From an uncultured Chloroflexia bacterium (GTDB lineage: Bacteria; Chloroflexota; Limnocylindria; Limnocylindrales; CSP1-4), in NCBI GenBank assembly GCA_963711105.1, contig CAVQCV010000005.1, positions 1,025,092 through 1,089,091 on the forward strand: a DNA stretch of 64,000 nucleotides. Direction: 5' to 3'. The first letter of the stretch is position 1. Each line of letters begins with the position of its first letter. Under the pieces are notes generated by a model. That model was given only the letters and a program-made list of their open reading frames with translations, searched no databases and was not told where the DNA came from. Shown piece by piece: positions 6,007-58,637 of this stretch. The position numbers and the translations under genes are program-made.

Positions 6007-7479
6007 ATGGGCAAGCCGACGGGTTTCATGGAGTTCGAGCGCGAGCCCGCGCACACCCGACCACCGCTCGAGCGAATCAAAGATTGGTCCGACGCCCATC
6101 CCGAATACGACGAGAAGACGCTCCGGGACCAGGGCGCCAGGTGCATGGACTGCGGCATCCCTTACTGCCACACCGGCGAACTGGTCAAGGGTCTGGCGGT
6201 CGGCTGCCCGATCAACAACCTGATCCCGGAGTGGAACGACCTCGTCTACCGGGGCCAGTGGCGCGAGGCGATCATCCGCCTCCACAAGACCAACAACTTC
6301 CCGGAGTTCACCGGCCGCGTCTGTCCGGCGCCGTGCGAGGGTTCATGCACGCTCGGCATCAACCAGCCGCCGGTGATGATCAAGAACAACGAGCTGGAAA
6401 TCATCGAGCGCGCCTTCCGCGAAGGCTGGGTCGTGCCCGAGCCGCCGCTGGCCCGCACCGGGTTCAAGGTCGCGGTCGTCGGATCCGGGCCGGCCGGCCT
6501 GTCCGCCGCCGCGCAACTGAATCGCGCCGGCCACGAAGTCACCGTCTACGAGCGTGACGATCGGGTCGGCGGCTTGCTCATGTACGGCATCCCGAACATG
6601 AAGCTGGACAAGGGCGTCGTTCAGCGCCGCGTCGACATCCTCGCGGCCGAGGGCATCACGTTCGTGACCGGCGTGGAAGTCGGCCGAACCATCGAGGCGG
6701 ACAAGCTCGTCGCCGATTTCGACGCCGTCGTTCTGGCGACCGGTTCGACGGTGCCGCGCGATCTGCGCGTCGAGGGCCGCGAGCTGACGGGCGTCCACTT
6801 CGCCATGGACTATCTGGCCGCCAACACCAGGGCCGTCCTCGGCGGCACCGAGCCGCCCATCTCGGCGAAGGGCAAGAACGTCATCGTCATCGGCGGCGGC
6901 GACACCGGCACTGACTGCGTCGGCACGGCCATCCGCCACGGCGCGAAGAGCGTCACCCAGCTCAAGATCCTGCCCAAGCCGCCCGACACCCGGGCCGACG
7001 ACAACCCCTGGCCGCAGTGGCCCAAGGTCTACAAGCTCGACTACGGCCAGGAAGAGGCCGCCGCGATGTGGGGCGCAGACCCGCGCCGCTACCTCGTCAA
7101 CACTCGCCGCCTGACCGGCGAGAACGGCCACGTCAAGGCCATCGAGACCGTCGAGATCGAGTGGGTCCACTCCGACGGCCGCCTCACCATGAAGGAGTGC
7201 GAGGGCACGGCGCAGGTGCTGCCGGCGGACCTCGTCCTGATCGCGATGGGCTTCGTCGGGCCGCAGCCGGAACTGCCGGCGGCCTTCGGCTGCAAGCTGG
7301 ACCACCGCGGCAACATCGTCCACGACCAGGATCAGTTGACGTCCGTGCCGGGCGTCTTCGCGGCCGGCGACTGCGCCCGGGGCCAGTCGCTCGTCGTCTG
7401 GGCCATCCGGGAGGGCCGCCGGGCCGCCCGCGGCGTCGACAAGTATCTGATGTACGGCGAGACCGTCCTGCCGGGCTGA
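6007..7479 (+). CDS. gltD: Glutamate synthase small subunit (NADPH, beta)
   Basis: [13 protein letters not shown] start 3 bp after the gltB stop. Fe-S Cys clusters and FAD/NADPH GxGxxG ([14 protein letters not shown]) present. Confidence 0.95.
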
Positions 7480-7507
7480 ACCCGGCCTCAATTGCTCGGA
7501 AGTACGG

Positions 7508-8092
7508 TCAGGGCGCCGGAGCAGGACTTGGCACGTTGCCGTACGTGGCCGGGCTGACCCACGACAGCGGACCGCCCCAGTAGCGGAGCCAGGCGCGCCC
7601 GATGACCGACGATTTGGCGATGGGCCCGAAGACCCGCAAATCTTGAGACGCCTGGCGGTGGTCGCCCAGCACGAACAGGTACCCGTCCGGCACGACCCAG
7701 CTCGACTGGTCGGTTATCGGAGCGGTCTCCTGGCCGGGGTAGACGTAGGGCTCGTCGAGCTTCGCGCCGTTGACCCAAACCGCGCCGTCGTGGACGTCGA
7801 CCCGATCCCCGGCGACGGCGACGACGCGCTTGATGAACGGCACGTCCTGGCCGTCCTCGCGGTACCCGGCGGGCGGCTCGAACACGATCACGTCGCCCCT
7901 TCTGTAGTCCGTGAAGTGGGGCGAGAGCTTGTCGACCAGGACGTACTGGCCCGGCTCGAGGGTGGGCTCCATAGAGACCTGGAGTATCTGGTAGGGCTGG
8001 GCGACGAAGTTCTGGACGACGAAGAAGATGATCAGCGTCAGAACGATCGTCTCGACGATCTCGAAGAGGCAGCCTCGCCAGTTGGCCTTCAT
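7508..8092 (-). CDS. lepB: Signal peptidase I
   Basis: 195 aa from internal Met (MKANWRG...). N-terminal TM, catalytic Ser region (VSMEPTL), Lys box (KRVVAVAGD), GDHRQASQDLR box. Confidence 0.85.
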   Translation of the reverse strand: MKANWRGCLFEIVETIVLTLIIFFVVQNFVAQPYQILQVSMEPTLEPGQYVLVDKLSPHFTDYRRGDVIVFEPPAGYREDGQDVPFIKRVVAVAGDRVDVHDGAVWVNGAKLDEPYVYPGQETAPITDQSSWVVPDGYLFVLGDHRQASQDLRVFGPIAKSSVIGRAWLRYWGGPLSWVSPATYGNVPSPAPAP

Positions 8093-8533
8093 GCAGGTTC
8101 GCCTCGATTGGTGCGGGCGACCCCGCGATGGACGCCTGGAATTGCCTAGAAGGTAGCATCTCCGACCGAATCCACGAGCGCGGCCCCGGCGCAGGTATCG
8201 GAGGCCAGTGCCGGCAGACCGTGCGCGCGGGGCGCCGCCCGTTCGTCCGGGTCGGCGAACCCTCGTGTCGATTGTCCGGTATCGTCTCCGACGTGAGTAC
8301 GATCGTGGAGTTCCGAGGGCCGTTCCGTCTGGTCGAAGAAGGGGCAAATCGGCTGCGCCGCATGGGCCGCGGAACCTGGTACTGCCGCTGTGGCACCGTG
8401 GCCACCGCCACACGCGGCAAGCCGCGCTGCGACGAGTGCCGCTCCGGTCGCGATTGCGGTCTCGACTGCAGCCTGACGAGCCTCCTTTGCCCCAGCTGCG
8501 GCGCCAGCCTCACGCAACCCTAGGATCCCGGGC

Positions 8534-9979
8534 ATGGCCACCGCTTCGAACCCTGCAGCCCACCCCATCTACCTGGCCGGCCGCTGGGTCGAGTCGCCCG
8601 AAAGACTGGGCGTCGCCAATCCCGCCCGGCCCGGCGAGATGGCCGGCGCCACGTTCTACGCCACTCCGGAGCAATACGAGGAGGCCGTGCGGGCCGCCGT
8701 CGCGGCGTTCGAAGCGACCCGCAAGCTGCCGGCTTACCAGCGCAGCGCGGCCCTTCGCCACATCAGCGAGGGCATCGCGACCCGTCGCGAGGAACTGGGC
8801 CGCCTGATCGCCACCGAATCGGGCAAGCCTATCCGCGACGCCCTTGGAGAGGTGGACCGGGCGGTGCTGACGTTTCGGATAGGCGCGGAGGAAGCCGAAC
8901 GGATCGGCGGCGAACTCATCCCCCTGGACCTGAACCCGGCATCGCGCGGACGGACCGGCATCGTCCGCCGCTTCCCGATCGGCCCGATCGCGGCCGTCAG
9001 TCCGTTCAACTTCCCGCTCAATCTCGCCGCCCACAAGCTTGCCCCGGCCATCGCTTCGGGCAACCCGATCGTCCTCAAGCCGCCGTCCAGGGACCCGCTC
9101 ACGATGCTAGCCGTGGCCGAAAGCGTGGCCGAGGCCGGGCTCCCGGACGGGGCGGTGAGCATCCTGCCCATGACGCGCGAGCTGGGCGACCGCATGGTTT
9201 CCGACGAGCGCTTCAAGCTCCTGACCTTCACCGGCAGCCCCGAAGTAGGCTGGAAGATGAAGGAGCGGGCCGGCAAGAAGAAGGTCGTCCTCGAACTGGG
9301 CGGCAACGCCGGCGTCATCGTCGATCGAACGGCGGACCTGGCCTGGGCGGCCTCGCGCGTCGTCAGCGGCGCCTTCAGCTATGCCGGCCAGGTGTGCATC
9401 AGCGTCCAACGCGTGTTCGTGCACGAATCGATCTGGGGCGAGCTCATGGACCGCCTGCTTGAGCTCGCTGGCAACCTCAGGATCGGCGATCCCCTCGATC
9501 CCGCGACCGACATCGGTCCGATGGTGGACGAAGCCGCCGTCGCGCGCACCCAGGCCTGGGTCGATGAAGCCGTCTCCCTGGGCGGGCGGACGCTTCTGGG
9601 CGGCAAGGCCGACGGGCAGTTCTTTCCACCAACCATCCTGATCGACACGCCGGCGCAGGCGAGGGTTTGCCGGAACGAGGCTTTCGCGCCACTGCTGGTC
9701 GCCTTTCCTTTTGCGCACTTCGACGACGCCATCCGCCGGGTCAACAATTCGGCCTACGGCCTGCAAGCCGGCGTCTTCACCAACGACCTGACCCACGCCT
9801 GGACGGCCTTCGAGGAAATCGAGGCGGGTGGGGTGATCGTCAACGACGTACCCACGTATCGCATCGACCACATGCCCTACGGAGGCTCGAAGGACTCCGG
9901 CCAGGGCCGCGAGGGCGTGCGCTACGCAATTGAAGACATGACCGAGCTTCGGATCATGGTCCTGGCCCAGCCCGGCTGA
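8534..9979 (+). CDS. NAD(P)-dependent aldehyde dehydrogenase family protein
   Basis: 481 aa. ALDH fold motifs (ELGGNAG; catalytic Cys region GQVCIS; PYGGSKDSG). Confidence 0.85.
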   Translation: MATASNPAAHPIYLAGRWVESPERLGVANPARPGEMAGATFYATPEQYEEAVRAAVAAFEATRKLPAYQRSAALRHISEGIATRREELGRLIATESGKPIRDALGEVDRAVLTFRIGAEEAERIGGELIPLDLNPASRGRTGIVRRFPIGPIAAVSPFNFPLNLAAHKLAPAIASGNPIVLKPPSRDPLTMLAVAESVAEAGLPDGAVSILPMTRELGDRMVSDERFKLLTFTGSPEVGWKMKERAGKKKVVLELGGNAGVIVDRTADLAWAASRVVSGAFSYAGQVCISVQRVFVHESIWGELMDRLLELAGNLRIGDPLDPATDIGPMVDEAAVARTQAWVDEAVSLGGRTLLGGKADGQFFPPTILIDTPAQARVCRNEAFAPLLVAFPFAHFDDAIRRVNNSAYGLQAGVFTNDLTHAWTAFEEIEAGGVIVNDVPTYRIDHMPYGGSKDSGQGREGVRYAIEDMTELRIMVLAQPG

Positions 9980-10011
9980 GCGAGGCGCGCCCGTCGCCGC
10001 GGCCCGGGGGC

Positions 10012-10846
10012 CTAGTCCCAGCGCATCAGCGAGCCGAACGACCAGCGCATTGCCTCCACCAGAGATGCATCGAGGGGCAAGCTGACCGTCGCCTGCTGTC
10101 CGGTAGCCCGGCCGACGACACGGACGTTCAGGTATTCGCCGGTCCAGGCCAGCGAACTCAGCCTGTCGCGCGGGACGGCCAGGACGTCCACGCCGTAGCG
10201 GGTCGTGTCGTCCAGGTACTCCGGCGGTTCCGAGGCGATGACCAGCTCCCGAGCGCCCAGCAGGGCGACGCCGCAGGCGGGGCCGCTTCTGGTCCGCGGG
10301 GCCGCCACGTTCCCGACGGCGATTCGAGCCGGTTCCGTGAGATCGGGCCGGACGCTCGCGAATTCCAGGACCACCGCCCACTTGTGCGGCAACTCGTCCG
10401 GGCCCCGGCCGGCCTTCGACCCATCCATCCAGACGAAAGCCGAATCCACGGGCAAGACGGTGCCCGCCATAGTGCGGCGCAACGCGTCCAGGCCGGGCTG
10501 CAGCGAGTCCCGGCTCGCGGTGTTGTAGCGAACGGCGATGCCCGAGTTCGCGGCCATCAGGCGCAGCTTCCCGTACAGGAGGATCTGGCGATCCTCCACG
10601 AAGAGCAACTCGTCGATGGGCACCGACGTCAGGCGGCCCTGCATACCGTCCTCGACCCAGAGGGCAACGACCGAATCGCCGAAGCCGAGGACCTCGGTTG
10701 GGGTGGCGATGGGCCGCAGACCGGCCAGATGCGTCGCCCGCGGAATCACGAACAGGCGCTCGGGGGCCAGTTCGCCACAGGCAGCCTGGATGGCAGACAC
10801 GGCCTCCGGCGGCGGTTCGAGGCGCTGCCCCCGGTCTGCGTGCATT
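10012..10846 (-). CDS. Hypothetical protein
   Basis: C-terminal roughly 277 aa of a long minus ORF. The upstream part of that ORF overlaps ada in another frame and is discounted. No recognisable motifs. Confidence 0.45.
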
Positions 10847-10957
10847 TCTTCACTGGTGCCGATGCCCTGGTCCACCCAGCGGCCTCCCTTCGCAGGCAGC
10901 TTTGCCAGAGCGATAGTACGTGACGCGGCCGCCCGGCGAGGGGCCGGCCGGAACCGG

Positions 10958-12130
10958 CTACTCGAGGCCGGAGGCCAGGACGGTGGGCCTGCGGGGATCG
11001 CGCTCGGTCGGGGAGCTGCCGGCCCGTTCGGCGGCCAGGAGCTGCTTCTTGCGCGCCAGCCCGTACGCATAGCCGTGCAGCGAGCCGTCCGAGGCGACCA
11101 CGCGATGGCACGGCACGACGATTGCGACCGGGTTCGCCGCGCAGGCGGCACCGACGGCCCGGGCCGCCCGCGGCGCCCCCACCGACGCCGCGACATCGCC
11201 GTAGGAGCGCGTCTGCCCGGCCGGGATCTGGCGCAGCGCATCCCAAACCCGCCGCCGGAACGCGGTCGCGTGAACGTCGAGCGGCAAAGTGCTCGCCTCG
11301 GGGCGCGGATTGCCCGCCGCCAGATCCGACACGAGCGCGGCCACCTCGCCCATGCCCGAGTCGTCGCGCGTAACGGCCGCGCCTGAGTACTCGCGCCGGA
11401 GATCGCCGGCCAGATCGTCCGCTTCCGTTCCCAGCCGTACCGCGCACAAGCCCCGATCCGTGGCCGCGACCAGCGCCACTCCGTCCGGGATCGGCGCGAG
11501 TGTCCAGCGGATCCGCTCCCCCGCCCCACCCGCTTTGTACCTGCCCGGGGCCATGCCGAGCTCCGTGCCGGCCGCCTCGTAGCCCGAGCTCGACGACCCG
11601 TAGCCCGCCTCGAACAGCGCGCCCAGGACGTCGCGCCCACTGGAGAGGTGGGCCCGGAGATGCTCGGCCCGGCGCGCGGCCGCCCAGGCCCTGGGCGTGA
11701 CTCCCAGCCGCTCGCGAAAGAGCTCCCGCAGCCGCCGCTCCGGCACTCCCGCGGCCGCCGCGAGCTCGCGATCGCCCGGGGCTTCCTCGCCGGAGGCCAG
11801 CGCCACGCCGAGCGTGGCCACTGTCAATTCCACGGGATCGCGGCGGGCGCTTGGATCGTCGCCCGAGGCCTCGCCGTCGAACCGGCGCTCTGGATGGCAG
11901 CGCAGGCAAGGCCTCGCCCCAGCCTCGAGCGCCTCGTCGAGGCTTTTCACGATCCGGACCCGGTCCCGCCCGGGCGTCCGGGCCGGGCACCCCGGCCGGC
12001 ACACGATGCCGGTGCTCGTGACGACCAGCAGCCACGTGCGTCCGCCGGCCGGACGCCGTTCCGCGATCGCCGCCCACTCTTCGTCCGTCGGCGCCGAACC
12101 GACCTGACTGAGTCGCTGTCGCTGATTCAT
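10958..12130 (-). CDS. ada: Bifunctional Ada regulator / O6-methylguanine-DNA methyltransferase (Ada zinc domain + AraC HTH + MGMT)
   Basis: N-terminal Ada Zn-binding motif (TGIVCRPGCPAR...RPCLRCHPE), central AraC-type HTH, C-terminal MGMT with PCHRVV active-site Cys. Confidence 0.85.
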   Translation of the reverse strand: MNQRQRLSQVGSAPTDEEWAAIAERRPAGGRTWLLVVTSTGIVCRPGCPARTPGRDRVRIVKSLDEALEAGARPCLRCHPERRFDGEASGDDPSARRDPVELTVATLGVALASGEEAPGDRELAAAAGVPERRLRELFRERLGVTPRAWAAARRAEHLRAHLSSGRDVLGALFEAGYGSSSSGYEAAGTELGMAPGRYKAGGAGERIRWTLAPIPDGVALVAATDRGLCAVRLGTEADDLAGDLRREYSGAAVTRDDSGMGEVAALVSDLAAGNPRPEASTLPLDVHATAFRRRVWDALRQIPAGQTRSYGDVAASVGAPRAARAVGAACAANPVAIVVPCHRVVASDGSLHGYAYGLARKKQLLAAERAGSSPTERDPRRPTVLASGLE

Positions 12131-25648: not shown

Positions 25649-26472
25649 CAGTCCAGATCTCCGGAGACCTTCTCGGCGCCATCGGCGGCGTCCCTCGTCC
25701 CGAAGCCGACGTCGTCGTCGACGCTCGCGGCGTCAACAAGTGGTTCGGCCGGCTGCACGTCCTCAAGGACGTTTCGCTCGAGGTCAAGCGCCAGGAGACG
25801 GTCGTAATCATCGGGCCGTCGGGCTCGGGCAAGACCACTTTCATCCGCTGCATGAACCACCTCGAGAAGATTCAGAGCGGCCGAATCTTCGTCAACGGCC
25901 ACCTGATCGGTTATCGCGAGGCGGCCGGCGGCACGAAGCTGGTCGAAGACAGGGAGAGGAACATCGCCCACCAGCGCCAGGAGATCGGGATGGTCTTCCA
26001 GCGCTTCAATCTCTTCCCCCACATGACCGCGCTGGAGAACATCGTCGAGGCGCCGATCCACGTGCGCGGTACCTCCCGCGACGAGGCTGAGGCAATGGGA
26101 CGCGCTCTGCTCGAGCGAGTGGGGCTCGTGGCGAAAGCCAACTCCTACCCCGCGCAGCTCTCCGGTGGCCAGCAGCAGCGCATCGCGATCGCCCGGGCGC
26201 TGGCCATGAAGCCGGCCCTGATGCTGTTCGACGAACCGACGTCCGCGCTGGATCCCGAGATGATCGGCGAGGTGCTGGAGGTCATGAAGGAGCTGGCCCG
26301 CGAAGGCATGACCATGATCGTGGTCAGCCACGAGATGGGCTTCGCCCGCGAAGTGGCCAACCGCGTCGTGATGATGGACGAGGGCGTCGTCGTCGAAGAA
26401 GGCACTCCGGATCAGGTGTTCTCCCACCCCGCGCAGGAGCGCACGAAGGCGTTCCTCTCGAAGATCCTGTAG
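25645..26472 (+). CDS. Amino-acid ABC transporter ATP-binding protein
   Basis: Walker [10 protein letters not shown], signature LSGGQQQR, Walker [12 protein letters not shown]. 4-bp overlap with the permease. Confidence 0.9.
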
Positions 26473-26477
26473 CCGCC

Positions 26478-27047
26478 CCGGGGCCGGCGGCGCCACGCTT
26501 TGGCGAGGGGCGGCGGCCACGCTTTGGCGAGGGGCGGCGGCCACGCTTTGGCGAGGGGCGGCGCCACGCTTTGGCGAGGGGCGGCGCCACGCTTTGGCGA
26601 GGGGCGGCGCCACGCTTTGGCGAGGGGCGGCGCCACGCTTTGGCGAGGGGCGGCGCCACGCTTTGGCGAGGGGCGGCGCCACGCTTTGGCGAGGGGCGGC
26701 GCCACGCTTTGGCGAGGGGCGGCGCCACGCTTTGGCGAGGGGCGGCGCCACGCTTTGGCGAGGGGCGGCGCCACGCTTTGGCGAGGGGCGGCGCCACGCT
26801 TTGGCGAGGGGCGGCGGCCACGCTTTGGCGAGGGGCGGCGCCACGCTTTGGCGAGGGGCGGCGCCACGCTTTGGCGAGGGGCGGCGCCACGCTTTGGCGA
26901 GGGGCGGCGCCACGCTTTGGCGAGGGGCGGCGGCCACGCTTTGGCGAGGGGCGGCGCCACGCTTTGGCGAGGGGCGGCGCCACGCTTTGGCGAGGGGCGG
27001 CGGCCACGCTTTGGCGAGGGGCGGCGGCCACGCTTTGGCGAGGGGCG
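26478..27047. repeat. Tandem repeat array, about 24 copies of a 23/24-bp unit (CACGCTTTGGCGAGGGGCGGCG[G]C)
   Basis: Counted directly from sequence. Head-to-tail copies with only one variable position (one or two G). No unique spacers. Open in several frames only because the unit lacks stop codons. Confidence 0.9.
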
Positions 27048-27112
27048 GCCCGCCCACTCGAAACCAACTCTCGGCGTCCGAGCTGACTTGCTCAACGTCA
27101 ACCGTGGCGACC

Positions 27113-27925
27113 CTAACCAGGCCCCGGGAGATCGGTGGCACCCCCATCCCGGCGAGATGGGCTTCCTGAGGCGTCGCCTGAGCGTGAGCTGGGCCGATCC
27201 AGGTCATGTCGGGTGGCTCTGACTCTCAATGCGCCCCCTGAACGTTGCCCAGCGTTACCGGGGTTGACATCGGACAGGAACCACAGTCCCCGGATGTCGC
27301 CCCGAGGAGCGCGGATCCATTTGCGCACCTCCAGCGATCCGGCTGGGTACGCGGCACGTACGACGGGACCGAATTCCTCGACGGTGTGTCTCGCCTGGCT
27401 CTCTCCGGGCATCGCCAGCACGGTCCCGACCAGAAGCGGCTGCCATCCAAGCTCACGAGCCAGCCGGGGCGCCAGCCTGCGCTTTCGATCGAGTGTCGAC
27501 AGCGTGTCCTGCAGATCTAAGATGACCGGCTTGGCCTCCACCACCAGCAGAGCGCGAGTTGCGGCGTGCCAGCCCATCGCGTCGAGCGCGCCGTTCTCGC
27601 CGAAGATCGCAAATGTCAGTTCAGGGCGTACTTCCCAGCTCGCGGCCGTGAGCCTCTGAACAATCGCCCTGACGAGGGCCGCGTGCCTGGCGTCGAGCAG
27701 CCTCGCAATCTCCCCGCCGCGCCATCGCGGGCTGAACGGAACAGAAACCCCGAGAGCCGCGCCGACGTGCCTGATCGAACGCAGCGACATCTGTTCCAGG
27801 TGGCCGCTCTCGATCATCGAGACCATCGCCCGGCTGACTCCCGCCGCAGCCGCCACATCGGCCTGACGCAAGCGGCGCCGAAGGCGCACGGCGCGCATGA
27901 CGGCACCGACCCGGACATCGTCCAT
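27113..27925 (-). CDS. XRE-family HTH transcriptional regulator
   Basis: N-terminal HTH (LRQADVAAAAGVSRAMVSMIESG). Stop lies just downstream of the tandem-repeat array. Confidence 0.65.
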   Translation of the reverse strand: MDDVRVGAVMRAVRLRRRLRQADVAAAAGVSRAMVSMIESGHLEQMSLRSIRHVGAALGVSVPFSPRWRGGEIARLLDARHAALVRAIVQRLTAASWEVRPELTFAIFGENGALDAMGWHAATRALLVVEAKPVILDLQDTLSTLDRKRRLAPRLARELGWQPLLVGTVLAMPGESQARHTVEEFGPVVRAAYPAGSLEVRKWIRAPRGDIRGLWFLSDVNPGNAGQRSGGALRVRATRHDLDRPSSRSGDASGSPSRRDGGATDLPGPG

Positions 27926-51379: not shown

Positions 51380-51427
51380 TGGCTGGCGCGCTAGGATTCG
51401 AACCTAGAATCCCCTGATCCAGAGTCA
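51380..51427 (-). repeat. Distal att repeat (partial tRNA-Gln 3' half, 48 bp)
   Basis: Identical to 58563-58610. The sequence upstream of it cannot form an acceptor stem, so it is not a tRNA gene. Confidence 0.8.
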
Positions 51428-51544
51428 CCAGGCGGCTACCGACGTGCTACTCAGCGTGGCAGGGCCACCGACAGGGGCTCAGTTAGGGGATCGAGAGCGT
51501 AGACTGACGCCAGCGTCCGACATGACGGGAAGGGGTGAACCGGA

Positions 51545-52045
51545 ATGCGCAAGCTCCTACTGGCCGTTGTCCTGGTAGCCGCTGGGTCCCTATCCGGGTG
51601 TGGGGCGGCCACGGACTCGACGGTGCCCACGAATACGGCGACCTCGGCGGCGTTGACGTTGCCGGCCACGACCCCGGCGCCCGTCGCGGCATCAGCTACG
51701 CCCGCAGCTACTAGCCGGTGCGAGACGCCGAGCCAGACACTCGTGGATGCGATCTCCAGCGGCCTCAAGATCGGTGGCGGCGGCACCATAAGGGGCGCGC
51801 AAGCCGTACGGTCGACTGATTTCGAGAGGGTCTGGTTCGTCTCCGCCGACCTCCAGGGATCGGGGCTGGAGGGCAAGACCGACATCGCCACGTGGGCCAC
51901 AAACGACCTGAACGGCGCCGGAGCGATCTACTCCGTCGATGCCGTTGCGGCCGAGTTCAGCGACTGGGGGAGGCCGCCCAGCATGAGCATGAGCGACGAT
52001 GGGGCCCAAGCCTCCGCTCAGTGCGCCAGAGATAGCGTCAAGTAG
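51545..52045 (+). CDS. Lipoprotein, hypothetical
   Basis: Signal peptide with lipobox (AAGSLSGC). 166 aa. Confidence 0.55.
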   Translation: MRKLLLAVVLVAAGSLSGCGAATDSTVPTNTATSAALTLPATTPAPVAASATPAATSRCETPSQTLVDAISSGLKIGGGGTIRGAQAVRSTDFERVWFVSADLQGSGLEGKTDIATWATNDLNGAGAIYSVDAVAAEFSDWGRPPSMSMSDDGAQASAQCARDSVK

Positions 52046-52232
52046 ACGGGCCAGGGACAGCCGCTCAACCTGCCGAGAGCCACGGCAGGCACCTGCCGGC
52101 GGTCGCCATCTCGCGGGCGTACTCGGGCAGGCAGTCGAAGCACGGCCGATCCTGAGCGTGGCTGGGTCACCGAAAGGGGGCCAGTCAGAGGATGTAGGAG
52201 ACTAGACTTGGAGTCTGACTGGCCGTTCATGT

Positions 52233-52985
52233 ATGGGTGGTCCGCAGATTGGACGGAGGGCGACAACCGTGACCGACAGGGCGGAACACGAGCCGGTTAT
52301 GCCGGTTGTGCCGAAGACTCCCAAATGGGAAGAGTACGCCCGTGAGCGGGTCAGGGTCGGGATCAAGAAATTTTCCAAGCCGCTCGCCGAGTTCCTCGCC
52401 CGAGACGCGAACGAGGGCGACACGCGGCTCCTCGTAACCGACTTCCTGTGCGAAGCCCTGGGCTTCGACAAGTTCTCAGAGCTGGCCACCGAGTATGTGG
52501 TCAAGGGCGAGTTCGCCGACTACGGCGTCCGGATCGACAAACAGCTCGTGGCCTTCATCGAGGTCAAGCGGGTCGCCACCAAGCTCAGCCAGAACCACCT
52601 TCGCCAGGTCGAGATGTACGCGGTCAACGAGGGCATCGAATGGATGATCCTCACCAACGGCGCGCAATGGCAGGCCTACCACCTGACCCCCGGCATGCCT
52701 GTCCAGATCGACCTCGCGCTCGAGGTGGACCTCCTGGGCCCCGACTCACCCGCCAAGAAGGCTGATGCGATCTACCACCTGACCCGCGAAGCCCTGAAGC
52801 GCCGCGTAATTGACGAACTCTGGAAGGCCAAGCGCACTTCGTCGCCGAGGGCCATAGCCCAAATCCTCGCCTCGCCCGCTGTCGCCACGGTCGTCCGCAA
52901 GGAGTTAGGGCGCCAGGGCTACCGGGCCACGGACGCCGAGGCCGCTGCTCTCATCAAGGCGGCGATCCGAGCCGACTGCCAGTAG
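52233..52985 (+). CDS. HSDR_N-like PD-(D/E)xK nuclease-fold protein (standalone type I R-subunit N-terminal domain homolog)
   Basis: Motif order D(TRLLVTDF)...D(YGVRID)...EVK...TNG matches the HSDR_N_2 restriction-endonuclease-like core. Start probably internal (MPVVPKTPKWEEY). Confidence 0.55.
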   Translation: MGGPQIGRRATTVTDRAEHEPVMPVVPKTPKWEEYARERVRVGIKKFSKPLAEFLARDANEGDTRLLVTDFLCEALGFDKFSELATEYVVKGEFADYGVRIDKQLVAFIEVKRVATKLSQNHLRQVEMYAVNEGIEWMILTNGAQWQAYHLTPGMPVQIDLALEVDLLGPDSPAKKADAIYHLTREALKRRVIDELWKAKRTSSPRAIAQILASPAVATVVRKELGRQGYRATDAEAAALIKAAIRADCQ

Positions 52986-52990
52986 AGGAC

Positions 52991-53007
52991 CCCCCCCGGG
53001 GGGGGGC
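52991..53007. terminator. C8G9 homopolymer palindrome, possible bidirectional terminator
   Basis: ccccccccggggggggg lies between convergent genes ending at 52985 (+) and 53042 (-). Confidence 0.45.
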
Positions 53008-53041
53008 GCATGTCGATCTTCTTTCGCGCGTTGGCTTCTTG

Positions 53042-54133
53042 TCAGCGGTAGCGGGCGTCCGGATCGGGGCCGATCGGGTCGGAGTACGGCGCCTCCGGGG
53101 TCGCCATCCCAGCGGCCACGGTCTTGGCCCGAATGGACTCGACCACGAAACGGTTCACCTGGCCGTCGGTCGGATCGCCGACTGCGCGGGCTGCCGCGAT
53201 GGCGGCCCGGCTGGCTCGCGCATGGATGGCGGCCTGCTCGACCCTCCACGATTCGACTTCGGCGTTGACGGCGTCCCGAGCTTCGGCCGCTTCTGCGTGG
53301 CCGTCCCACGTTGCCACGTACGCGGCCTCGAGCCGGTCGACCATCCGTGTGGCTGCGGGGACTCCGTGTTCCTGAGCAGCCATCGCGAAGGCCCGGGCGT
53401 TGACCAGATCGCCGGCCGCTTCGGCGGCTTCGGCCTGCCCGAGCAGGATGTTGGCGGCGGCGGTCGGGCCGCTGACGGTCTTCGCCAGTCGGGCCGCCCG
53501 GAGCTCTATGCCCATGTCGACATTGACTTGTTCTGGCGTCCGGGTGTCGCGGGCGAGGGCCTTCCGGGCGTCGCCGGCGGCCTTCGCGCGCCACGTTTCC
53601 ATCCCGCCAGCGGCCCGAGCTGTTACGTGGTCGAGGGCGTCCAGGAGGCGCTTGCGCTCGCGGGTCTTCCACTCCCGATCGAGGCCGTTGTCTTCGGTGA
53701 GCTTCTCGAGGGCCGCGGTGATCTCGGCGGCCTGCTGTTGCGTTACGTTCCTGATCTTGCGGGCGGTTTCGATCGCGATATCGGGGGGCATGGTCTTCTC
53801 CTGTCGCTTGGCCTCGCGACGCAGGCGCGCCGCTTCGGCGGTTAGGGTGGCCGGGTCGGGTGAACCGGCCAGGCCGAGCTTGTCCATGAGCGTCGCCGTC
53901 GCCGACTCCGTGCCGGGCGTCGGGGCCGCGAGCAGCCCGGCCAGGGCTTCGTATCGGTCCGCCTGCCTTCGCGTCTCGGCGATGCGCTCCGCTGGCTTCA
54001 TCGCGGCCTGTTGGATCGCGGCCTGACGGGCTTCCTCTTGCTCTCGCTGGGCGGCGCGAATGGCGATTTCCTGCCGCTCTTCTCGGGCTCGCGCTTCCGG
54101 CGACATGGCGGCTCGGCGGCTCCAGCTGTTCAT
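53042..54133 (-). CDS. Hypothetical Ala/Arg/Glu-rich protein (363 aa)
   Basis: First gene of a four-gene minus-strand operon with overlapping stop/start codons. Confidence 0.5.
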   Translation of the reverse strand: MNSWSRRAAMSPEARAREERQEIAIRAAQREQEEARQAAIQQAAMKPAERIAETRRQADRYEALAGLLAAPTPGTESATATLMDKLGLAGSPDPATLTAEAARLRREAKRQEKTMPPDIAIETARKIRNVTQQQAAEITAALEKLTEDNGLDREWKTRERKRLLDALDHVTARAAGGMETWRAKAAGDARKALARDTRTPEQVNVDMGIELRAARLAKTVSGPTAAANILLGQAEAAEAAGDLVNARAFAMAAQEHGVPAATRMVDRLEAAYVATWDGHAEAAEARDAVNAEVESWRVEQAAIHARASRAAIAAARAVGDPTDGQVNRFVVESIRAKTVAAGMATPEAPYSDPIGPDPDARYR

Positions 54134-54576
54134 CGCTCGTCACCTGCCTCTGTGGCAGCCTCAGAGGGCCGCTCTACGGGGGGTGCGGGGTCGGAGCGGA
54201 CATTGGCGCCACTCGGGCAATCGGAGCGCCAGGAGGCCGGGTCCCGATAGCCGAGCACTGCGGCCCTGACGTCGGGCGAGAGACGATCGAGAGCGGCGGC
54301 CATCGCGGCCATGCCGGCTTGCGTTTCGGCGTGCTCGGCCAGCTGCCGGCGGATCGCTCCGATGACGGCGGCCTGGGTGGCGTCGGCTGGTTGGCACTCG
54401 GCCAGGAACGCGGCCAGGTCCAGGCTGATGCCGAACGACCGACCGGGCCAGTCGGCGTACAGGGCGGCGCGTACAAGCCATCCGGCGTCAAGGTCGACGG
54501 ATCGGCCGTCCGGGCTCGCGAACGTGGCGGCCGGCCGGGAGGGACCCGCGATCGGGTCGGTTGCGGGGAACCTCAT
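54130..54576 (-). CDS. Hypothetical protein (148 aa)
   Basis: 4-bp overlap with the downstream gene. Good periodicity. Confidence 0.45.
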   Translation of the reverse strand: MRFPATDPIAGPSRPAATFASPDGRSVDLDAGWLVRAALYADWPGRSFGISLDLAAFLAECQPADATQAAVIGAIRRQLAEHAETQAGMAAMAAALDRLSPDVRAAVLGYRDPASWRSDCPSGANVRSDPAPPVERPSEAATEAGDER

Positions 54577-54872
54577 CGCGGCGCCTTCGCTTTCGGGGCG
54601 CGGGCGGCCTTCGCGGCCAGGATGAGCGAGCGCTCGACGTCGCCTCCGTCCGGGTTCGAGTCGGGGTCGCAGCCAGCCAAGAAGTCGATCGCCTCATCGG
54701 ACAGGAGGCCGAGCGACGGCTCTCCGGGGGCGGCCAGGTAGGCGTCCAACGGCACCGTCAACGGGAGCGCCAGGGTTGAGCCGTCGGGCCGGCGGAAGAC
54801 TGCCCGGCCAGCCGATGCGACCGCATCGATGTCCTGCCGCAGCCGGCGGGCGCGGAGCGAGATACGAGACAT
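54573..54872 (-). CDS. Hypothetical protein (99 aa)
   Basis: 4-bp overlaps on both sides. Confidence 0.4.
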   Translation of the reverse strand: MSRISLRARRLRQDIDAVASAGRAVFRRPDGSTLALPLTVPLDAYLAAPGEPSLGLLSDEAIDFLAGCDPDSNPDGGDVERSLILAAKAARAPKAKAPR

Positions 54873-54873
54873 G

Positions 54874-55302
54874 TCAACCTCCTGGGGCTACGCGGGGTCG
54901 GGTGAATACTTCGCCCAGCTCGCCCGACTGGACGGCCGCAACCTGCTCCTCGAGCTCGGCCAGGCGATCGGTGACCACGGCCTCGTCATGTACCTGGACG
55001 ATCGATCGGGCCAGGCTGGCGATCGCATGGCCACGGGCGGGATCGAGTGAGCCGGAGAACGTCTCGGCGAGTGCCTGCTCGAGCGTCGCGGCCACGCCGG
55101 AGAACGGGCCTTGGCGGACGATCCGGTAGGCGCGGGCGAGGTTCGAGCGATGCCGGCCGCCCTTCGCGGAGCCGGTGCGGCGGGCGTCCAGGGCAGCCGG
55201 GTCCTGGGAGTGGGCCAGGCATCCCCCGTCCGGCTGCGTGGCGAAGCTGCCGCAGGGCGAGCCGTCGCGCCGTCGATACCGGCACTGGGGCTGTGGGGTC
55301 AT
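54874..55302 (-). CDS. Hypothetical protein with N-terminal Cys/His cluster (142 aa)
   Basis: CRYRRRDGSPCGSF...GGCLAH motif suggests a zinc-binding protein. Confidence 0.45.
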   Translation of the reverse strand: MTPQPQCRYRRRDGSPCGSFATQPDGGCLAHSQDPAALDARRTGSAKGGRHRSNLARAYRIVRQGPFSGVAATLEQALAETFSGSLDPARGHAIASLARSIVQVHDEAVVTDRLAELEEQVAAVQSGELGEVFTRPRVAPGG

Positions 55303-55549
55303 CGTTCCATCCCCTGACTGGGGGAGTTTCGGGAGGCGTTCGGGCGGGTCGCTGAGCGTGAACGGCGGGCCCCTTGGACCGGCTGATCGTCAATCAGGGG
55401 ATCAGCCCGGCAGACGTCGCAAACCCAGCCGGCGCCGTCTCGGCGATGCCCGAATTGATGGGCGGCGTAGTCGTCGCAGCGGACCGTCTCAGACGGCGCG
55501 GCGCTCACGGGGCCGGCCGGCTCCGCGTCCGGCGGCGTGGACAGGTACA

Positions 55550-55849
55550 TCATCCGACGGCCCTCCGGCGAGGCAGGTCTACGACGTCGGCCGACTCGTG
55601 CGCGTGCGTGGGGGCTGGGGCGGCCTGGGCCGAGCACAGGCGGACAGGGTGGGCGCCTTCGAGCGGGACAGTTTCGTCGATCGTCCCAGGAACGACGGCC
55701 GCAACCGTGCGCCACGTCTCGGCCGCGTCTTCGATCGTGTCGGTGATCGACACCAGGGCGAAGGCCGCTACGTCTCGGCACTCTCCGTCGACCAGGGCGT
55801 GCCACGGCTCGGCCACGGGGCACAGGCTGACGATCCGCTCCGCGCTCAC
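55550..55849 (-). CDS. Hypothetical protein
   Basis: GTG start overlapping the stop of the upstream gene (GTGA). Confidence 0.35.
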   Translation of the reverse strand: MSAERIVSLCPVAEPWHALVDGECRDVAAFALVSITDTIEDAAETWRTVAAVVPGTIDETVPLEGAHPVRLCSAQAAPAPTHAHESADVVDLPRRRAVG

Positions 55850-56685
55850 GACGTGGCAGCCTTTCGCCCGGCGATCTTCGCGGCGCAGCGAAGGCAGTAC
55901 TTGGATCCGTCGCCGGGGTGGTCGGCCGCGTGTCCCACCATGTCGTAGCACCACGGACTCGACCAGGTTGCGGCGCGATCGACTCCGATTCGCGTCGCTG
56001 GGTCCGATCCGGTTGTGCCGTTCTGTTGCGGAAGAATCGGCGCTATCTCCGCTCGATCAACCGGCTCCGACCCTTCCGTCGAAGAAAGCTCGGCTGCGGC
56101 TTGAGAAGAACGGTTGAGTTCTGGATTCTGTCCTACTCGGACGGAGGTACCAACCGGAATCTCAGTCTCAGTAGGAATCTCAGTCTCAGTAGTTGGATCG
56201 ACCGTTGGCTGATTGCCCAACGGTTCGTTGGCTGATTGCCCAACGGTTCGTTGGCTGGTTCGTTGGGATCGCGGCAGGAAATGCCCGGCATCGTCTCGAC
56301 GGGCCGCCCGAGCGGAGGCCTGACCGGCGACCTTCGCGGCCTCGATCCGCTTCGCCCTGGCCTCTTCTTGGGTTGGGATGCGATAGCGGTAGTCCGGCAG
56401 CCGCTCGATTAGGCCGAGCCGGGCCAGCTCATCCGCCAGTTCGTCCGATACCGAGCGGTTGAGATCTGCCGGACTCGGCCAGGCGCGATCCGCAGCCAGC
56501 GTGAGCCGAACCAAGACGGCGAGCTTGCGATCATCCGAGTAGACGCCAGCGAGGGCCGGATCGTCCGCGAGGGCATGGGGCAGTCGGACCCAGGCCTCGC
56601 GGCGCAGGTCAACCGCGCGGCTGCTCATCGTACGGGCCCTGGAGTGGAGGCGGGACCGCCCAGGCCGACGATCCCGCCCGCACAC
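55846..56685 (-). CDS. Putative DNA-binding/replication protein of the element
   Basis: N-terminal winged-helix-like segment, central low-complexity region encoded by DNA-level repeats, C-terminal Cys/His cluster (HPGDGSKYCLRCAAK). The function is a guess. Confidence 0.4.
   Translation of the reverse strand: MCGRDRRPGRSRLHSRARTMSSRAVDLRREAWVRLPHALADDPALAGVYSDDRKLAVLVRLTLAADRAWPSPADLNRSVSDELADELARLGLIERLPDYRYRIPTQEEARAKRIEAAKVAGQASARAARRDDAGHFLPRSQRTSQRTVGQSANEPLGNQPTVDPTTETEIPTETEIPVGTSVRVGQNPELNRSSQAAAELSSTEGSEPVDRAEIAPILPQQNGTTGSDPATRIGVDRAATWSSPWCYDMVGHAADHPGDGSKYCLRCAAKIAGRKAATS
56157..56260. repeat. Direct and inverted repeats (18-bp x2, then 23-bp x2 plus a partial copy containing ccgttgg-N8-ccaacgg)
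   Basis: gaatctcagtctcagtag x2 (56157-56192). cgttggctgattgcccaacggtt x2 plus a partial copy (56204-56260). The 23-bp unit is out of frame between copies, so these repeats are DNA-level. Confidence 0.75.
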
Positions 56686-56953
56686 GGCTGGGAGGATGCT
56701 GATTGCCGGCGACGTCGCGCCTGGCTCGCTCTGAGGCTCAGGGCCGCCATGTGCTGCCGGCGAAGGAAAGCGGCCCGGCGGCTCGCCTCCTCGGGTGTGA
56801 GGCTCTCGCCGCGGGCAGCCGCTTCCTCGATGGCCCGCCGCACGAACCCGGCCAGCTGCCCGGCGAGGGCCGGGGCGACGTTGGTCTTGCCTTGAGCATG
56901 AAGCGCGAACGCGCCGATCCGGGCGCGTGTGGAGCGCTCCGCGGCGGTGAGGC

Positions 56954-57205
56954 TCACCGGAGGACCTCGAGCTCGGCCGGGTCCACTCCGATGGCTTCGA
57001 GCCACGCGGCCTGTCGGCGCGCCGGCATCGGAGAGACGCCGTTCTCGACCGCAGTCACGAAGACCCGGGCGACGCCAAGATGGCCGGCGAGTTGCTCCTG
57101 GCTGAGGCCCGCCATCAGCCGACGCTCCACCAGGAGCCGGAGAGCGGGTGCGCGCTCGCTCAGCGGCAGGCGGGAGGCTGGGAACCTGCGCGTACGAAAG
57201 GCCAC
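56954..57205 (-). CDS. XRE/Cro-like HTH protein (regulator or excisionase candidate)
   Basis: HTH LSQEQLAGHLGVARVFVTAVENG. 83 aa. Upstream of the integrase. Confidence 0.55.
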   Translation of the reverse strand: MAFRTRRFPASRLPLSERAPALRLLVERRLMAGLSQEQLAGHLGVARVFVTAVENGVSPMPARRQAAWLEAIGVDPAELEVLR

Positions 57206-57527
57206 CGGACCACCTCACGTTGAGGTTGTCCCGGTGGCCTCTGACTGCGGCTCGGGTTTCGCTTATCTCGATGGATTGGCCGGCTATCCCGCCCTCACGG
57301 CGTGTATCAAGTCGTGCCGGACCTTCTTGAAGCCTCGGAGTCTTGAACGGGCCTTGTGTGCTTCTCTCGCTGCGAGCGCCTCGTTCTGAGGGCCTGTGCG
57401 CTTCTCTCGCTGTGGAGGGTCCGCTCCGTGCTGACCGCCGATCCATCACGGCGTCCGTACTTACGGTATGGTGCCGTGTAGGCCGGTGTCAAGCCGTCCC
57501 CGTGATCTCGGCTACCTCGGGGCTCCC

Positions 57528-58541
57528 CTACAGCCGGTCGGCCGGACTCAGCCGTCGGTGCGCCTCCCGGGCGCGTTCGTCCGCGGCGCTCGCCCCGTAC
57601 CGGCTCAGCATCGTTCGGGATCTCCAGCCGGCAAGGCGCATCAGGTCGGTTTCGTTCCCACCCGCCGACAGCCACCCCGACGCGAACGAATGGCGCAACA
57701 CGTGGGCGTGGAACCCCTCAACCCCGGCCACGGCGGCCCGGCGCTTGAGGGCCTGGACGATGCCGCGACTCTCGAGCCGACCGCGCCTGCCGAGCCAGAA
57801 CCATTCGCTGCTCGCGTCGCGATGGTGGGCGCGGGCGCGCATGTAGCGATTGAGGGCACGGCCGACGGTGGCGCCGAACGGGAGGGCGCGGCGCGATCCG
57901 CCCTTGCCCACCACCACGGCGACGGCTTGCGTCATGTCGACGTCAGCGGTCGTGAGGTTGGCGACTTCGCTCAACCGGGCACCCGTGTCGAAGTACAACA
58001 GCAACAGGGCGAGGTCCCGGCGATCCTCGAATTCGGTCCCGCCGCATGCCCGGACGAGGGCGGCGATCTGCTCCTGCGTCAGCACGGGCACTGGATCGAC
58101 GGCCACGGCCGGTTGCTTCATGCGCGCCATCGGCGAAAGCGTGATCTCGCCCTCTTCGATCATGTAGGCGAAGAATGGCCGGAGTGAGCGGAAGCGGAGC
58201 GCCACGGTTGCCGGAGAGCGCCCGCGCTCGGTCAGGTCCAGTAGGAACGCCTCGACATGCTCGCGGCGTATCGCGCTCGCCTGAGTCGGCATCCCCCGAT
58301 CGGCCAGGAAGTCGCCCAGCTGCCGCAGGCTGTCCGCGTAGCTCTCGATGGTCCGGGGGCTCTTGTGCTCCGCCCTAAGATGGGTCGTCCAGGGCTCGAC
58401 TTCGGCCCGGACGTCGCCAAAGCGGGTGCCGGTTGTGGTCTGTTCGGTCATTCGGTCCCCTTTGGAATGTGTCCAGTAAGGGGATCGTACCACCGACGTG
58501 CTAACCGTCAACGGCCGGAGGCCACCCAGTAAGGGGCTCAA
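57528..58541 (-). CDS. int: Tyrosine recombinase / phage-type integrase
   Basis: SAM-like N-domain plus catalytic domain with R...HxxR (HVLRHSFAS) and the Tyr region ([13 protein letters not shown]). Start possibly at the internal MTEQTTTG. Confidence 0.9.
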
Positions 58542-58562
58542 TCTGAGCGTGAACCGGGGGGT

Positions 58563-58637
58563 TGGCTGGCGCGCTAGGATTCGAACCTAGAATCCCCTGA
58601 TCCAGAGTCAGGTGCCTTACCGTTAGGCCACGCGCCA
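58563..58637 (-). tRNA. tRNA-Gln (anticodon CTG)
   Basis: Hand-folded 75-nt cloverleaf. U1-A72 acceptor (TGGCGCG/CGCGCCA), anticodon stem CCTGA/TCAGG, loop CTCTGGA, T-arm CTAGG-TTCGAAT-CCTAG, encoded CCA. Confidence 0.85.

Follow-up and report, generated by a model that had tools for sequence, protein, structure and literature searches.

A candidate replication origin embedded in an initiator-like gene of a 7.2-kb integrated element from an uncultured Chloroflexia bacterium

A 64,000-nucleotide stretch of DNA from an uncultured Chloroflexia bacterium (contig CAVQCV010000005.1), referred to here as the window, carries on its minus strand a gene with perfect tandem repeats of 18 and 23 bp inside its coding sequence, and the question that this locus raises is whether such repeats are kept for the peptide, for the DNA, or for neither. 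The gene (55846-56628, ORF260) belongs to an integrated element of 7.2 kb, and a preliminary description of the window likened its repeats to iterons, an origin, or recombinase arm sites within a putative rep gene. We favor, with a probability of roughly 0.6, the reading that the repeats are iterons and an unwinding element, which together form a replication origin embedded in an initiator-like gene of the element. This reading rests on the anatomy of the repeats, their conservation at the DNA level throughout the gene family, the position of a fold boundary, a minimum of duplex stability, and the mobile-element context. The "rep" identity of the gene we infer from its architecture and neighborhood, and not from homology.

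Tandem Repeats Finder and direct reading agree that the repeats in the preliminary description are genuine and correctly placed. The program reports an 18-bp unit in 2.1 copies at 56156-56192 (100% match, score 74) and a 23-bp unit in 2.4 copies at 56203-56257 (100% match, score 110). By direct reading, the 18-bp unit gaatctcagtctcagtag is present in two perfect tandem copies, as had been described, at 56157-56174 and 56175-56192, and the 23-bp unit cgttggctgattgcccaacggtt in two copies at 56203-56225 and 56226-56248, followed by a partial third copy, cgttggctggtt, with one mismatch (56249-56260). The repeated 23-bp unit had thus been recognized correctly, but an additional half-site at 56261-56266 had been overlooked; it emerges from a repeat search in which GGTTCGTTGG occurs three times (56222, 56245, and 56257). 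The core of the array consists of six CCAACG/CGTTGG half-sites within 64 bp (56203-56266, corresponding to nucleotides 363-426 of the 783-nucleotide gene and to residues 121-142), which we regard as a candidate iteron cluster with two palindromes. CCAACG has 43 copies on the two strands of the window, with six inside 56203-56266, where ~0.04 would be expected per such stretch, and a 6-mer with six copies was found in 0 of 500 dinucleotide-preserving shuffles of the repeat region. With one mismatch allowed, CCAACG-N3-CGTTGG palindromes occur in the whole 64 kb only at 56217-56231 and 56240-56254 (0.20 expected); these dyads span the unit junctions, lie 23 bp apart, and are flanked by the half-sites at 56203-56208 and 56261-56266. 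The inverted repeat ccgttgg/ccaacgg, pointed out earlier as a feature of the 23-bp unit, is present, but its 7-nucleotide form is complete in the first copy only, and its pairing across a spacer of 8-9 nucleotides is less informative than the CCAACG-N2/3-CGTTGG dyad, made up of the same half-sites, that is conserved in the homologs. The palindrome segment folds better than its shuffles (z = -3.0 and -3.6), giving the modest hairpins that 6-bp dyads imply. On the coding strand the 18-bp pair (56157-56192), which is part of a GAGAC/GAGAT short-period run, reads CTACTGAGACTGAGATTC and is translated as TETEIP twice. The 23-bp copies are translated in the open reading frame (ORF) as ...SQRTSQRTVGQSANEPLGNQPTVD..., so that the claim that successive copies are read in different frames is correct, and the six half-sites occupy codon phases 2,2,2,1,1,0.

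To place these repeats in a family context, the window gene was compared with the DNA of nine homologs (L001-L006 and L008-L010; loci of 5-19 kb). All nine homologous loci contain a clustered 6-bp word in both orientations at about nucleotides 345-460 of the gene. The word is CCAACG/CGTTGG in the window, L001, L002, L003, and L005, GGAACG/CGTTCC in L004, ACCGCT/AGCGGT in L006, and CCAGCG/CGCTGG in the phage-borne genes L008-L010. An unbiased test, in which the most repeated strand-merged 6-mer in nucleotides 331-480 was taken from each of the 10 genes, returned these lineage words with 6-8 copies per gene; none of 500 shuffles equaled them, and other segments of the genes reached a maximum of 3-4 copies. 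Neither the cluster nor any full palindrome is found in the same locus outside that position of the gene, with 5-8 observed versus 0.1-0.5 expected. The arrangement varies: N2 palindromes recur at 24-bp and N3 palindromes at 23-bp intervals, while direct repeats are set 10-12 bp apart, the repeat periods of the homologs being 23, 24, or 11/33 bp. With intervals of 23, 24, and 10-12 bp, the spacings are near one or two helical turns. A reverse DNA search with a motif of two CCAACG-N2-CGTTGG palindromes 8-11 bp apart gave one genome match and three metagenome matches, none of them in a gene of the family, and is neutral. Its matches were a site upstream of an ArsR-like regulator, repeats in a RAYT/IS200-like transposase gene, and a copia retrotransposon fragment. 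At the site in question (L011 2722-2759, from a metagenome-assembled genome of the Streptosporangiales), two CCAACGACCGTTGG palindromes lie 10 bp apart in a 50-bp gap between genes for an FKBP-type isomerase and an ArsR-like winged-helix regulator, and are probably the operator of this regulator. The RAYT/IS200-like transposase gene (L012 407-1252, with a matching L013), on a low-GC metagenome contig, has at least four in-frame 24-bp repeats (ALDETPQR), each carrying a CCAACGCACGTTGG palindrome and CGTCTC, and is unrelated to the repeat-bearing gene family.

The preliminary description held that conservation of the repeats lies at the DNA level, and the homologs bear this out. The same or lineage-specific half-sites recur at a fixed place in genes with no more than 30-45% identity, and CCAACG itself is common to genes whose N-domains are only 37-45% identical. 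Most genes use several codon phases for their half-sites (2,0,2,1,0,2,1 in L001; 0,1,0,1,2,1,2,1 in L010), phase deciding whether one DNA word is translated as PT, QR, SNG, VG, or LG. The peptides themselves are unrelated among homologs (PTPVG, PTAVG, PTDHQRP, GERSVPD/GNAPFPI, and RTVGQSANEPLGNQPTV). Because the peptides are unrelated and the word falls in differing codon phases, the conserved object is the DNA and not the peptide; in none of the homologs is the peptide kept and the nucleotide repeat lost, since it is the peptides that differ and the half-sites that persist. A repeat at the peptide level was therefore rejected, as the half-sites fall in different codon phases. In the wider family, in-frame peptide repeats are found in residues 96-200 of 74 of 153 proteins as against residues 1-95 of 2 of 153, the former count being a minimum, as the test misses any period not divisible by 3. 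The half-site words track the N-domain subfamilies, as would be expected if a binding domain and its sites co-evolve.

Adjacent to the half-sites lies the least stable DNA of the window. In a nearest-neighbor stability profile the least stable duplexes of the 64 kb are 56158-56197 (for 40 bp), 56147-56206 (60 bp), and 56100-56199 (100 bp), with z about +4, and local GC content dips to ~0.61 compared with ~0.70 around it. On the basis of this profile, the GC trough, and the lack of significant single-strand structure in comparison with shuffles (z = -0.9 to -1.4), 56100-56206 is a candidate DNA unwinding element. In six of the nine homologous loci, too, the gene is least stable immediately 3' of the repeats, and in L004, L008, and L010 this is the minimum of the entire locus. 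All ten genes have a short-period run on the coding strand at the same position after the half-sites, with a period of 6 in the islands (ACTGAG, ACGAAG, ACGGAG, or CAGACG) and of 5 in the phage-borne genes L008-L010 (AGACG), which means that the AGACG run shifts frame. GAGAC(N)GAGATTC is common to the window and L008-L010, and the 18-bp repeat of the window is part of this conserved module. The position-conserved half-sites and the adjacent least stable duplex lend support to the earlier suggestion of an iteron- or origin-like pattern within a rep-like gene.

The protein encoded around these sites is compatible with an initiator-like role. ORF260 has 260 codons from the ATG at 56628, while the mechanical ORF starts at a GTG at 56685 and has 279. 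AlphaFold2 predicts residues ~10-120 with a predicted local distance difference test score (pLDDT) above 90, comprising helices, a β-hairpin (75-83), and a long helix (85-108). This conserved N-terminal winged-helix-like domain (residues 1-120, encoded by 56269-56628 on the minus strand) has a GC content at third codon positions (GC3) of ~0.8. From residue 121 on the chain is predicted to be disordered, with pLDDT below 60, and the half-site cluster opens at codon 121, that is, at the fold boundary. The central part (55990-56320, minus strand) is atypical in composition, encoding a predicted disordered T/S/E/P-rich linker, and its in-frame GC3 of 0.37-0.60 compares with ~0.8 at both ends of the gene. 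A zinc-ribbon-like C-terminal W-C-x5-H...C-x2-C motif, putatively a small zinc-binding module (55885-55950, minus strand; GC3 0.80-0.87), is retained in frame in the family proteins P0007 and P0093; it is present in only about 4 of 114 family members. Foldseek matches in the PDB are weak, yet almost all are winged-helix DNA binders (MarR, IclR, GntR, CRP, RTP, and a plasmid Rep-DNA complex, 5kbj, E = 1.6), so that a winged-helix fold class for the N-domain is plausible from the models, with no specific relative established.

The family is large and unannotated. An exhaustive HMMER search returned 403 homolog clusters (50% identity) at E <= 1e-3, where a word-indexed search with the 279-residue ORF returned none, and only the N-terminal ~110-120 residues are conserved, RDxxGHFxPR marking their end. 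None of 41 family members matches Pfam (E <= 1), the window protein matches no PHROG or NCBIfam family either, and every family match named in its source is a "hypothetical protein." No relative was found by tblastn/blastn against 50,697 phage and 72,556 plasmid records, with the window protein as query among 185,579 reference genomes, or by a profile search of PDB sequences. The gene is real and translationally coupled on both sides, its ATG overlapping the TGA of the upstream ORF o110 (ATGA) and its own stop the GTG of the next ORF (GTGA). A split of the ORF by a sequencing error, against which the preliminary description had cautioned, was rejected because the ORF is intact, open in 10 of 10 loci, conserved in frame at its C terminus, and coupled at both ends. 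In the public protein collection (NCBI/ENA), the products of the neighboring genes o363 (as P0167, 354 residues; 53042-54133) and o142 (P0168) are present and that of the repeat-bearing gene is absent with either start (55846-56685); the gene may have been called with another start or not at all, perhaps owing to the GC3 trough.

The context of the gene is that of an integrative element. A left attachment (att) repeat at 51380-51427, found by exact-match search and alignment, is a 48-bp exact copy of the 3' part of a tRNA-Gln(ctg) gene (58563-58637, minus strand, ARAGORN), whose 3' 48 bp (58563-58610) form the right att repeat, and these repeats delimit an element of 7.2 kb at ~51380-58610. 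Reading leftwards from the tRNA gene on the minus strand, the order is int, xre, o110, the repeat-bearing gene, and small ORFs with o363 (363 residues). The first of these encodes a tyrosine integrase (57528-58541; Pfam Phage_integrase 1.5e-26 and SAM-like N-domains; 48% identical to the L004 integrase), the second a small XRE-type helix-turn-helix (HTH) protein of 83 residues (56954-57205; Pfam HTH_31 2e-09, HTH_3 1e-06) with same-position homologs in L002 and L004, and the third, o110 (56625-56957), is a small conserved ORF of ~110 residues supported by the GC3 frame plot and 48% identical to ORF 4990-5301 of L004 (E = 4e-16). The downstream ORFs o174, o142, o99, o148, and o363 have no match in Pfam, PHROG, or NCBIfam (o100 was not scanned), and o363 and o142 have none among PDB sequences. 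No FtsK/SpoIIIE-type Tra protein (PF01580) occurs in the scanned ORFs of the element, and no Pfam match to RepSA, RepAM, or a Prim-Pol replication protein was found in it.

The module xre-o110-gene-o142-o99-o363 is conserved among the window, L002, and L004. The integrase is of the tyrosine type in the window and L004 and of the serine type in L001, L002, L003, L005, and L006, and xre is absent from L003, L005, L006, and L008, while the repeats are constant. In L006 a serine-integrase cassette of ~5.7 kb (6067-11768) has split the phenylalanyl-tRNA synthetase operon of its host by inserting between pheT and pheS. Composition, together with the F420- and GT87-type neighbors in related loci, would by itself point to a high-GC actinobacterium as host. 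On phage contigs of 28-43 kb the gene is found amid early DNA-metabolism genes (YqaJ exonuclease, RusA, NucS-like, and SMC-like) and not beside the terminase, and the phage-borne subfamily has the same three-part layout with an extra, confidently folded helical C-domain of ~70 residues.

Since the DNA-binding-domain region, helically phased dyad sites, and an easily melted tract share one gene of a mobile element, a theta-type origin within an initiator gene is the reading that we prefer. The ORF260 protein, and not XRE or a host factor, would then bind the sites, the low-stability run would unwind, and the element would replicate. Following excision, the operon xre-o110-ORF260 would be transcribed through the site, and the N-terminal winged-helix-like domain would bind CCAACG-N3-CGTTGG, probably as dimers, at sites about two helical turns apart and with flanking half-sites. 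The resulting nucleoprotein complex could stress the adjacent 56100-56206 with its 18-bp GAGAC/GAGAT repeats until it melts, and helicase and primase of the host (or of a helper phage) might be loaded at the melted segment for theta-type replication.

Several observations weigh against an origin at this position. The winged-helix matches from fold searches are weak, with the best Foldseek match to the PDB at E = 0.18 and that of a second model at E = 0.9; among viral models the best named matches are no better than marginal (E = 0.05-0.08; DUF1376 and a "DnaA N-terminal domain" protein), and the helix preceding the wing is acidic in the window protein. No homology with a known initiator was detected (hhalign probability of 0.14% with λ O; no Pfam match, Phage_rep_O included, in 41 members). 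In three of nine loci (L003, L005, and L009) the stability minimum is not beside the repeats, and the window and L010 show the GAGAC-type run only weakly. No recognizable helicase, loader, primase, or polymerase was found among the ORFs of the element with Pfam, PHROG, and NCBIfam, for which reason replication would depend on host or helper functions. Dyad sites of the 6-N2/3-6 form are, moreover, typical of operators, and the double palindrome upstream of the ArsR-like winged-helix gene in L011 is a comparable arrangement in an unrelated genome. Both the dyad form and the L011 arrangement agree with the idea that the repeats are intragenic operators, at which a dimeric HTH protein (XRE, or ORF260 as a repressor) autoregulates or blocks downstream transcription with no part in replication. 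The weak fold matches of the N-domain, mostly to transcription regulators, point in the same direction, as does a review on the integrative and conjugative elements of actinomycetes (AICEs), in which the in-gene RepAM site "hints to a regulatory role" (PMC2440964). We nevertheless consider operators unlikely, as no copy of the palindrome is found in promoter or intergenic regions of the element or the homologous loci, the repeats are constant where xre is not, and the conserved low-stability, short-period run and the stability minimum of the 64 kb would be left unexplained; no promoter-like site is predicted nearby, by a scan with little power for promoters of actinomycetes. Regulatory and origin roles are not mutually exclusive, as λ shows.

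A cis site for DNA transfer, either pac-type in a small-terminase-like gene or a clt-like locus for a helper translocase, would suit an element whose scanned ORFs include no transfer or packaging genes of its own and which must for that reason depend on a helper. Small terminases such as those of P22, SPP1, and P1 have an N-terminal HTH, and the packaging site often lies within the gene of the terminase that binds it. On the phage contigs, however, the gene sits in the early recombination and replication region and not beside terminase or portal genes, in the islands no other substantial gene stands between it and int-xre, the winged helix is followed by just a disordered linker with no predicted oligomerization core, and neither Pfam nor PHROGs yields a terminase match, which makes this an improbable account. 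Tandem repeats generated by slippage and tolerated in a linker, with no function at the DNA level, would fit the predicted disordered, low-complexity nature of the encoded region, the variable copy number and arrangement among homologs, and the perfect identity of the window copies, which suggests recent duplication. Slippage probably does generate the variation in copy number, but as the whole explanation it is very unlikely: CCAACG is shared at 37-45% N-domain identity, in both orientations, in all three codon phases, and in arrangements as different as N2 palindromes, N3 palindromes, and 11-bp direct repeats, and neither dyad symmetry nor the conserved order of half-sites, short-period run, and stability trough is a product of slippage.

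A double-strand origin for rolling-circle replication, of the RepAM/pC194 type and with a hairpin that presents the nick site to a nicking Rep, has a precedent in the hairpin-capable 8-bp repeats within the RepAM coding sequence (PMC2440964) and would accommodate the better-than-shuffled folding of the palindrome region. Yet these hairpins are only those implied by 6-bp dyads, an HUH motif is present in 0 of 10 genes, CTTGAT is lacking in 9 of 10 including the window gene, and 41 members match neither PF12307 nor any Rep family of rolling-circle replication (RCR). The predicted disorder of the C-terminal half in AlphaFold2 leaves no catalytic domain, which also speaks against RCR, and we judge such an origin highly improbable. 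The third option of the preliminary description, recombinase arm sites, we reject; arm-type or accessory sites for an integrase or excisionase are scarcely credible here in spite of a distance of only ~1.3 kb between the repeats and the integrase gene of an integrative element. The att cores (51380-51427 and 58563-58610) mark the two ends of the element, at a distance of at least 2.3 kb, and the repeats persist in serine-integrase cassettes and in phage genomes. Serine integrases are not known to use arm sites. An internal promoter or terminator was also considered and rejected, as none is predicted near the repeats.

Other features of the element and the window were noted. At the att-distal end, plus-strand cargo-like genes (51545-52985) encode a 250-residue HSDR_N-like protein (phrog_17239, E = 8e-53, with weak matches to type I restriction R N-terminal domains) and a 166-residue lipoprotein-like ORF, which could be defense or cargo genes. 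The gap between xre and int contains two 23-nucleotide direct repeats (57350-57412; GGCCTTGTGTGCTTCTCTCGCTG and GGGCCTGTGCGCTTCTCTCGCTG), 87% identical and 40 bp apart, which are candidate operator or integrase arm-type sites. Within the 550 bp from 55300 to 55850 the GC3 frame plot shows three changes of frame, and several ORFs may overlap (55550-55849 and 55299-55823), so that the genes called between ORF260 and o142 are uncertain; o142 itself (54874-55302) begins with a C-x8-C-x11-C-x2-H cluster resembling a zinc-binding module. Outside the element, 26486-27049 holds about 24 copies of a 23/24-bp unit, GGGGCGGCG(G)CCACGCTTTGGCGA, at 98% identity; the array is apparently intergenic, between a plus-strand ORF ending at 26472 and a convergent minus-strand ORF at 27113-27925, and the long ORFs called across it are probably repeat artifacts.

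If the origin reading is correct, it would give a function, that of an initiator with an embedded origin, to a large unannotated family in high-GC integrative elements and phages, and would supply a compact candidate replicon module of ~0.8 kb for actinomycete vectors. The gene would be a natural case of dual coding, in which the origin dictates the sequence of the disordered linker of the protein, and this would account for the anomalous GC3 trough met in annotating such genes. The int-xre-initiator cassettes, of 6-7 kb, are without capsid, packaging, conjugation, or replisome genes, and no description of the protein family or of its actinobacterial mini-elements was found in the family libraries and literature searched. 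It is tempting, but speculative and rather doubtful, to see in these cassettes an undescribed class of actinobacterial "hitchers" or satellites that share the origin-initiator module with temperate phages, the half-site words serving as a code of replication specificity or incompatibility between islands and helper phages.

The embedded-origin design itself is textbook knowledge from λ O and SPP1 G38P and would not surprise replication specialists. In λ, the origin (iterons and an AT-rich tract) lies in the middle of gene O, the number of iterons alters the length of O, with two extra iterons in Stx phages adding 13 O residues, and two iterons with the AT-rich tract suffice for unwinding (PMC7466680). 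In the λ record the four ori iterons occupy nucleotides 349-433 of the 900 of gene O, with spacings of 20, 24, and 23 bp. As in the window gene, the sites are in mid-gene, 3' of the region for the N-terminal DNA-binding domain (349-433 compared with 363-426), they are dyad-symmetric and 20-24 bp apart (23 bp here), and an easily melted tract lies on their 3' side. In contrast to the AT-rich tract of λ, the tract in the window is of ~48-55% GC in a 70% GC genome and is made up of GAGAC/GAGAT short-period repeats, and the C-terminal half of the window protein, unlike that of λ O, is mostly disordered with a small Cys/His motif. A P-like helicase-loader gene follows O in λ, whereas none is found among the scanned downstream ORFs of the window element (o174, o142, o99, o148, and o363).

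The other known systems show a similar mixture of likeness and difference. SPP1 oriL, with its AB boxes and DNA unwinding element, lies inside gene 38, whose product is its binder, an initiator without an AAA+ domain (PMC5737612); here too, candidate iterons and a candidate unwinding element lie in the gene of their putative organizer, but the G38P family is unmatched in 41 members (Pfam) and no helicase or helicase-loader genes comparable to SPP1 genes 39 and 40 lie beside the gene. RepAM of the actinomycete element pMEA300 binds multiple identical short repeats in its own coding sequence, a putative ori, these repeats being 8-bp units able to form a hairpin (PMC2440964). The window shares with pMEA300 an integrative element at a tRNA gene and repeats within the coding sequence of the initiator (here initiator-like), whereas DUF3631/PF12307, with which RepAM has been equated (PMC3218068), is unmatched in the window protein and 41 members. 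RepAM has a pC194-like nick site, implying RCR, while the window gene and eight of nine homologs are without CTTGAT/ATCAAG (one copy in L002). AICEs, defined by an FtsK/SpoIIIE Tra protein (PMC3218068), have the integrase and tRNA att site in common with the window element, the scanned ORFs of which lack that protein. Iteron-containing theta plasmids (Rep_3/RepA) likewise have a winged-helix-class domain (a winged-helix-like one here), helically phased repeats, and an adjacent unwinding element (a candidate here), but their iterons are as a rule direct repeats of 17-22 bp located between genes, and Rep_3 is unmatched in 41 members. While a member of none of the families of λ O, G38P, and RepAM, the repeat-bearing gene would, judged by its architecture, work as these three do.

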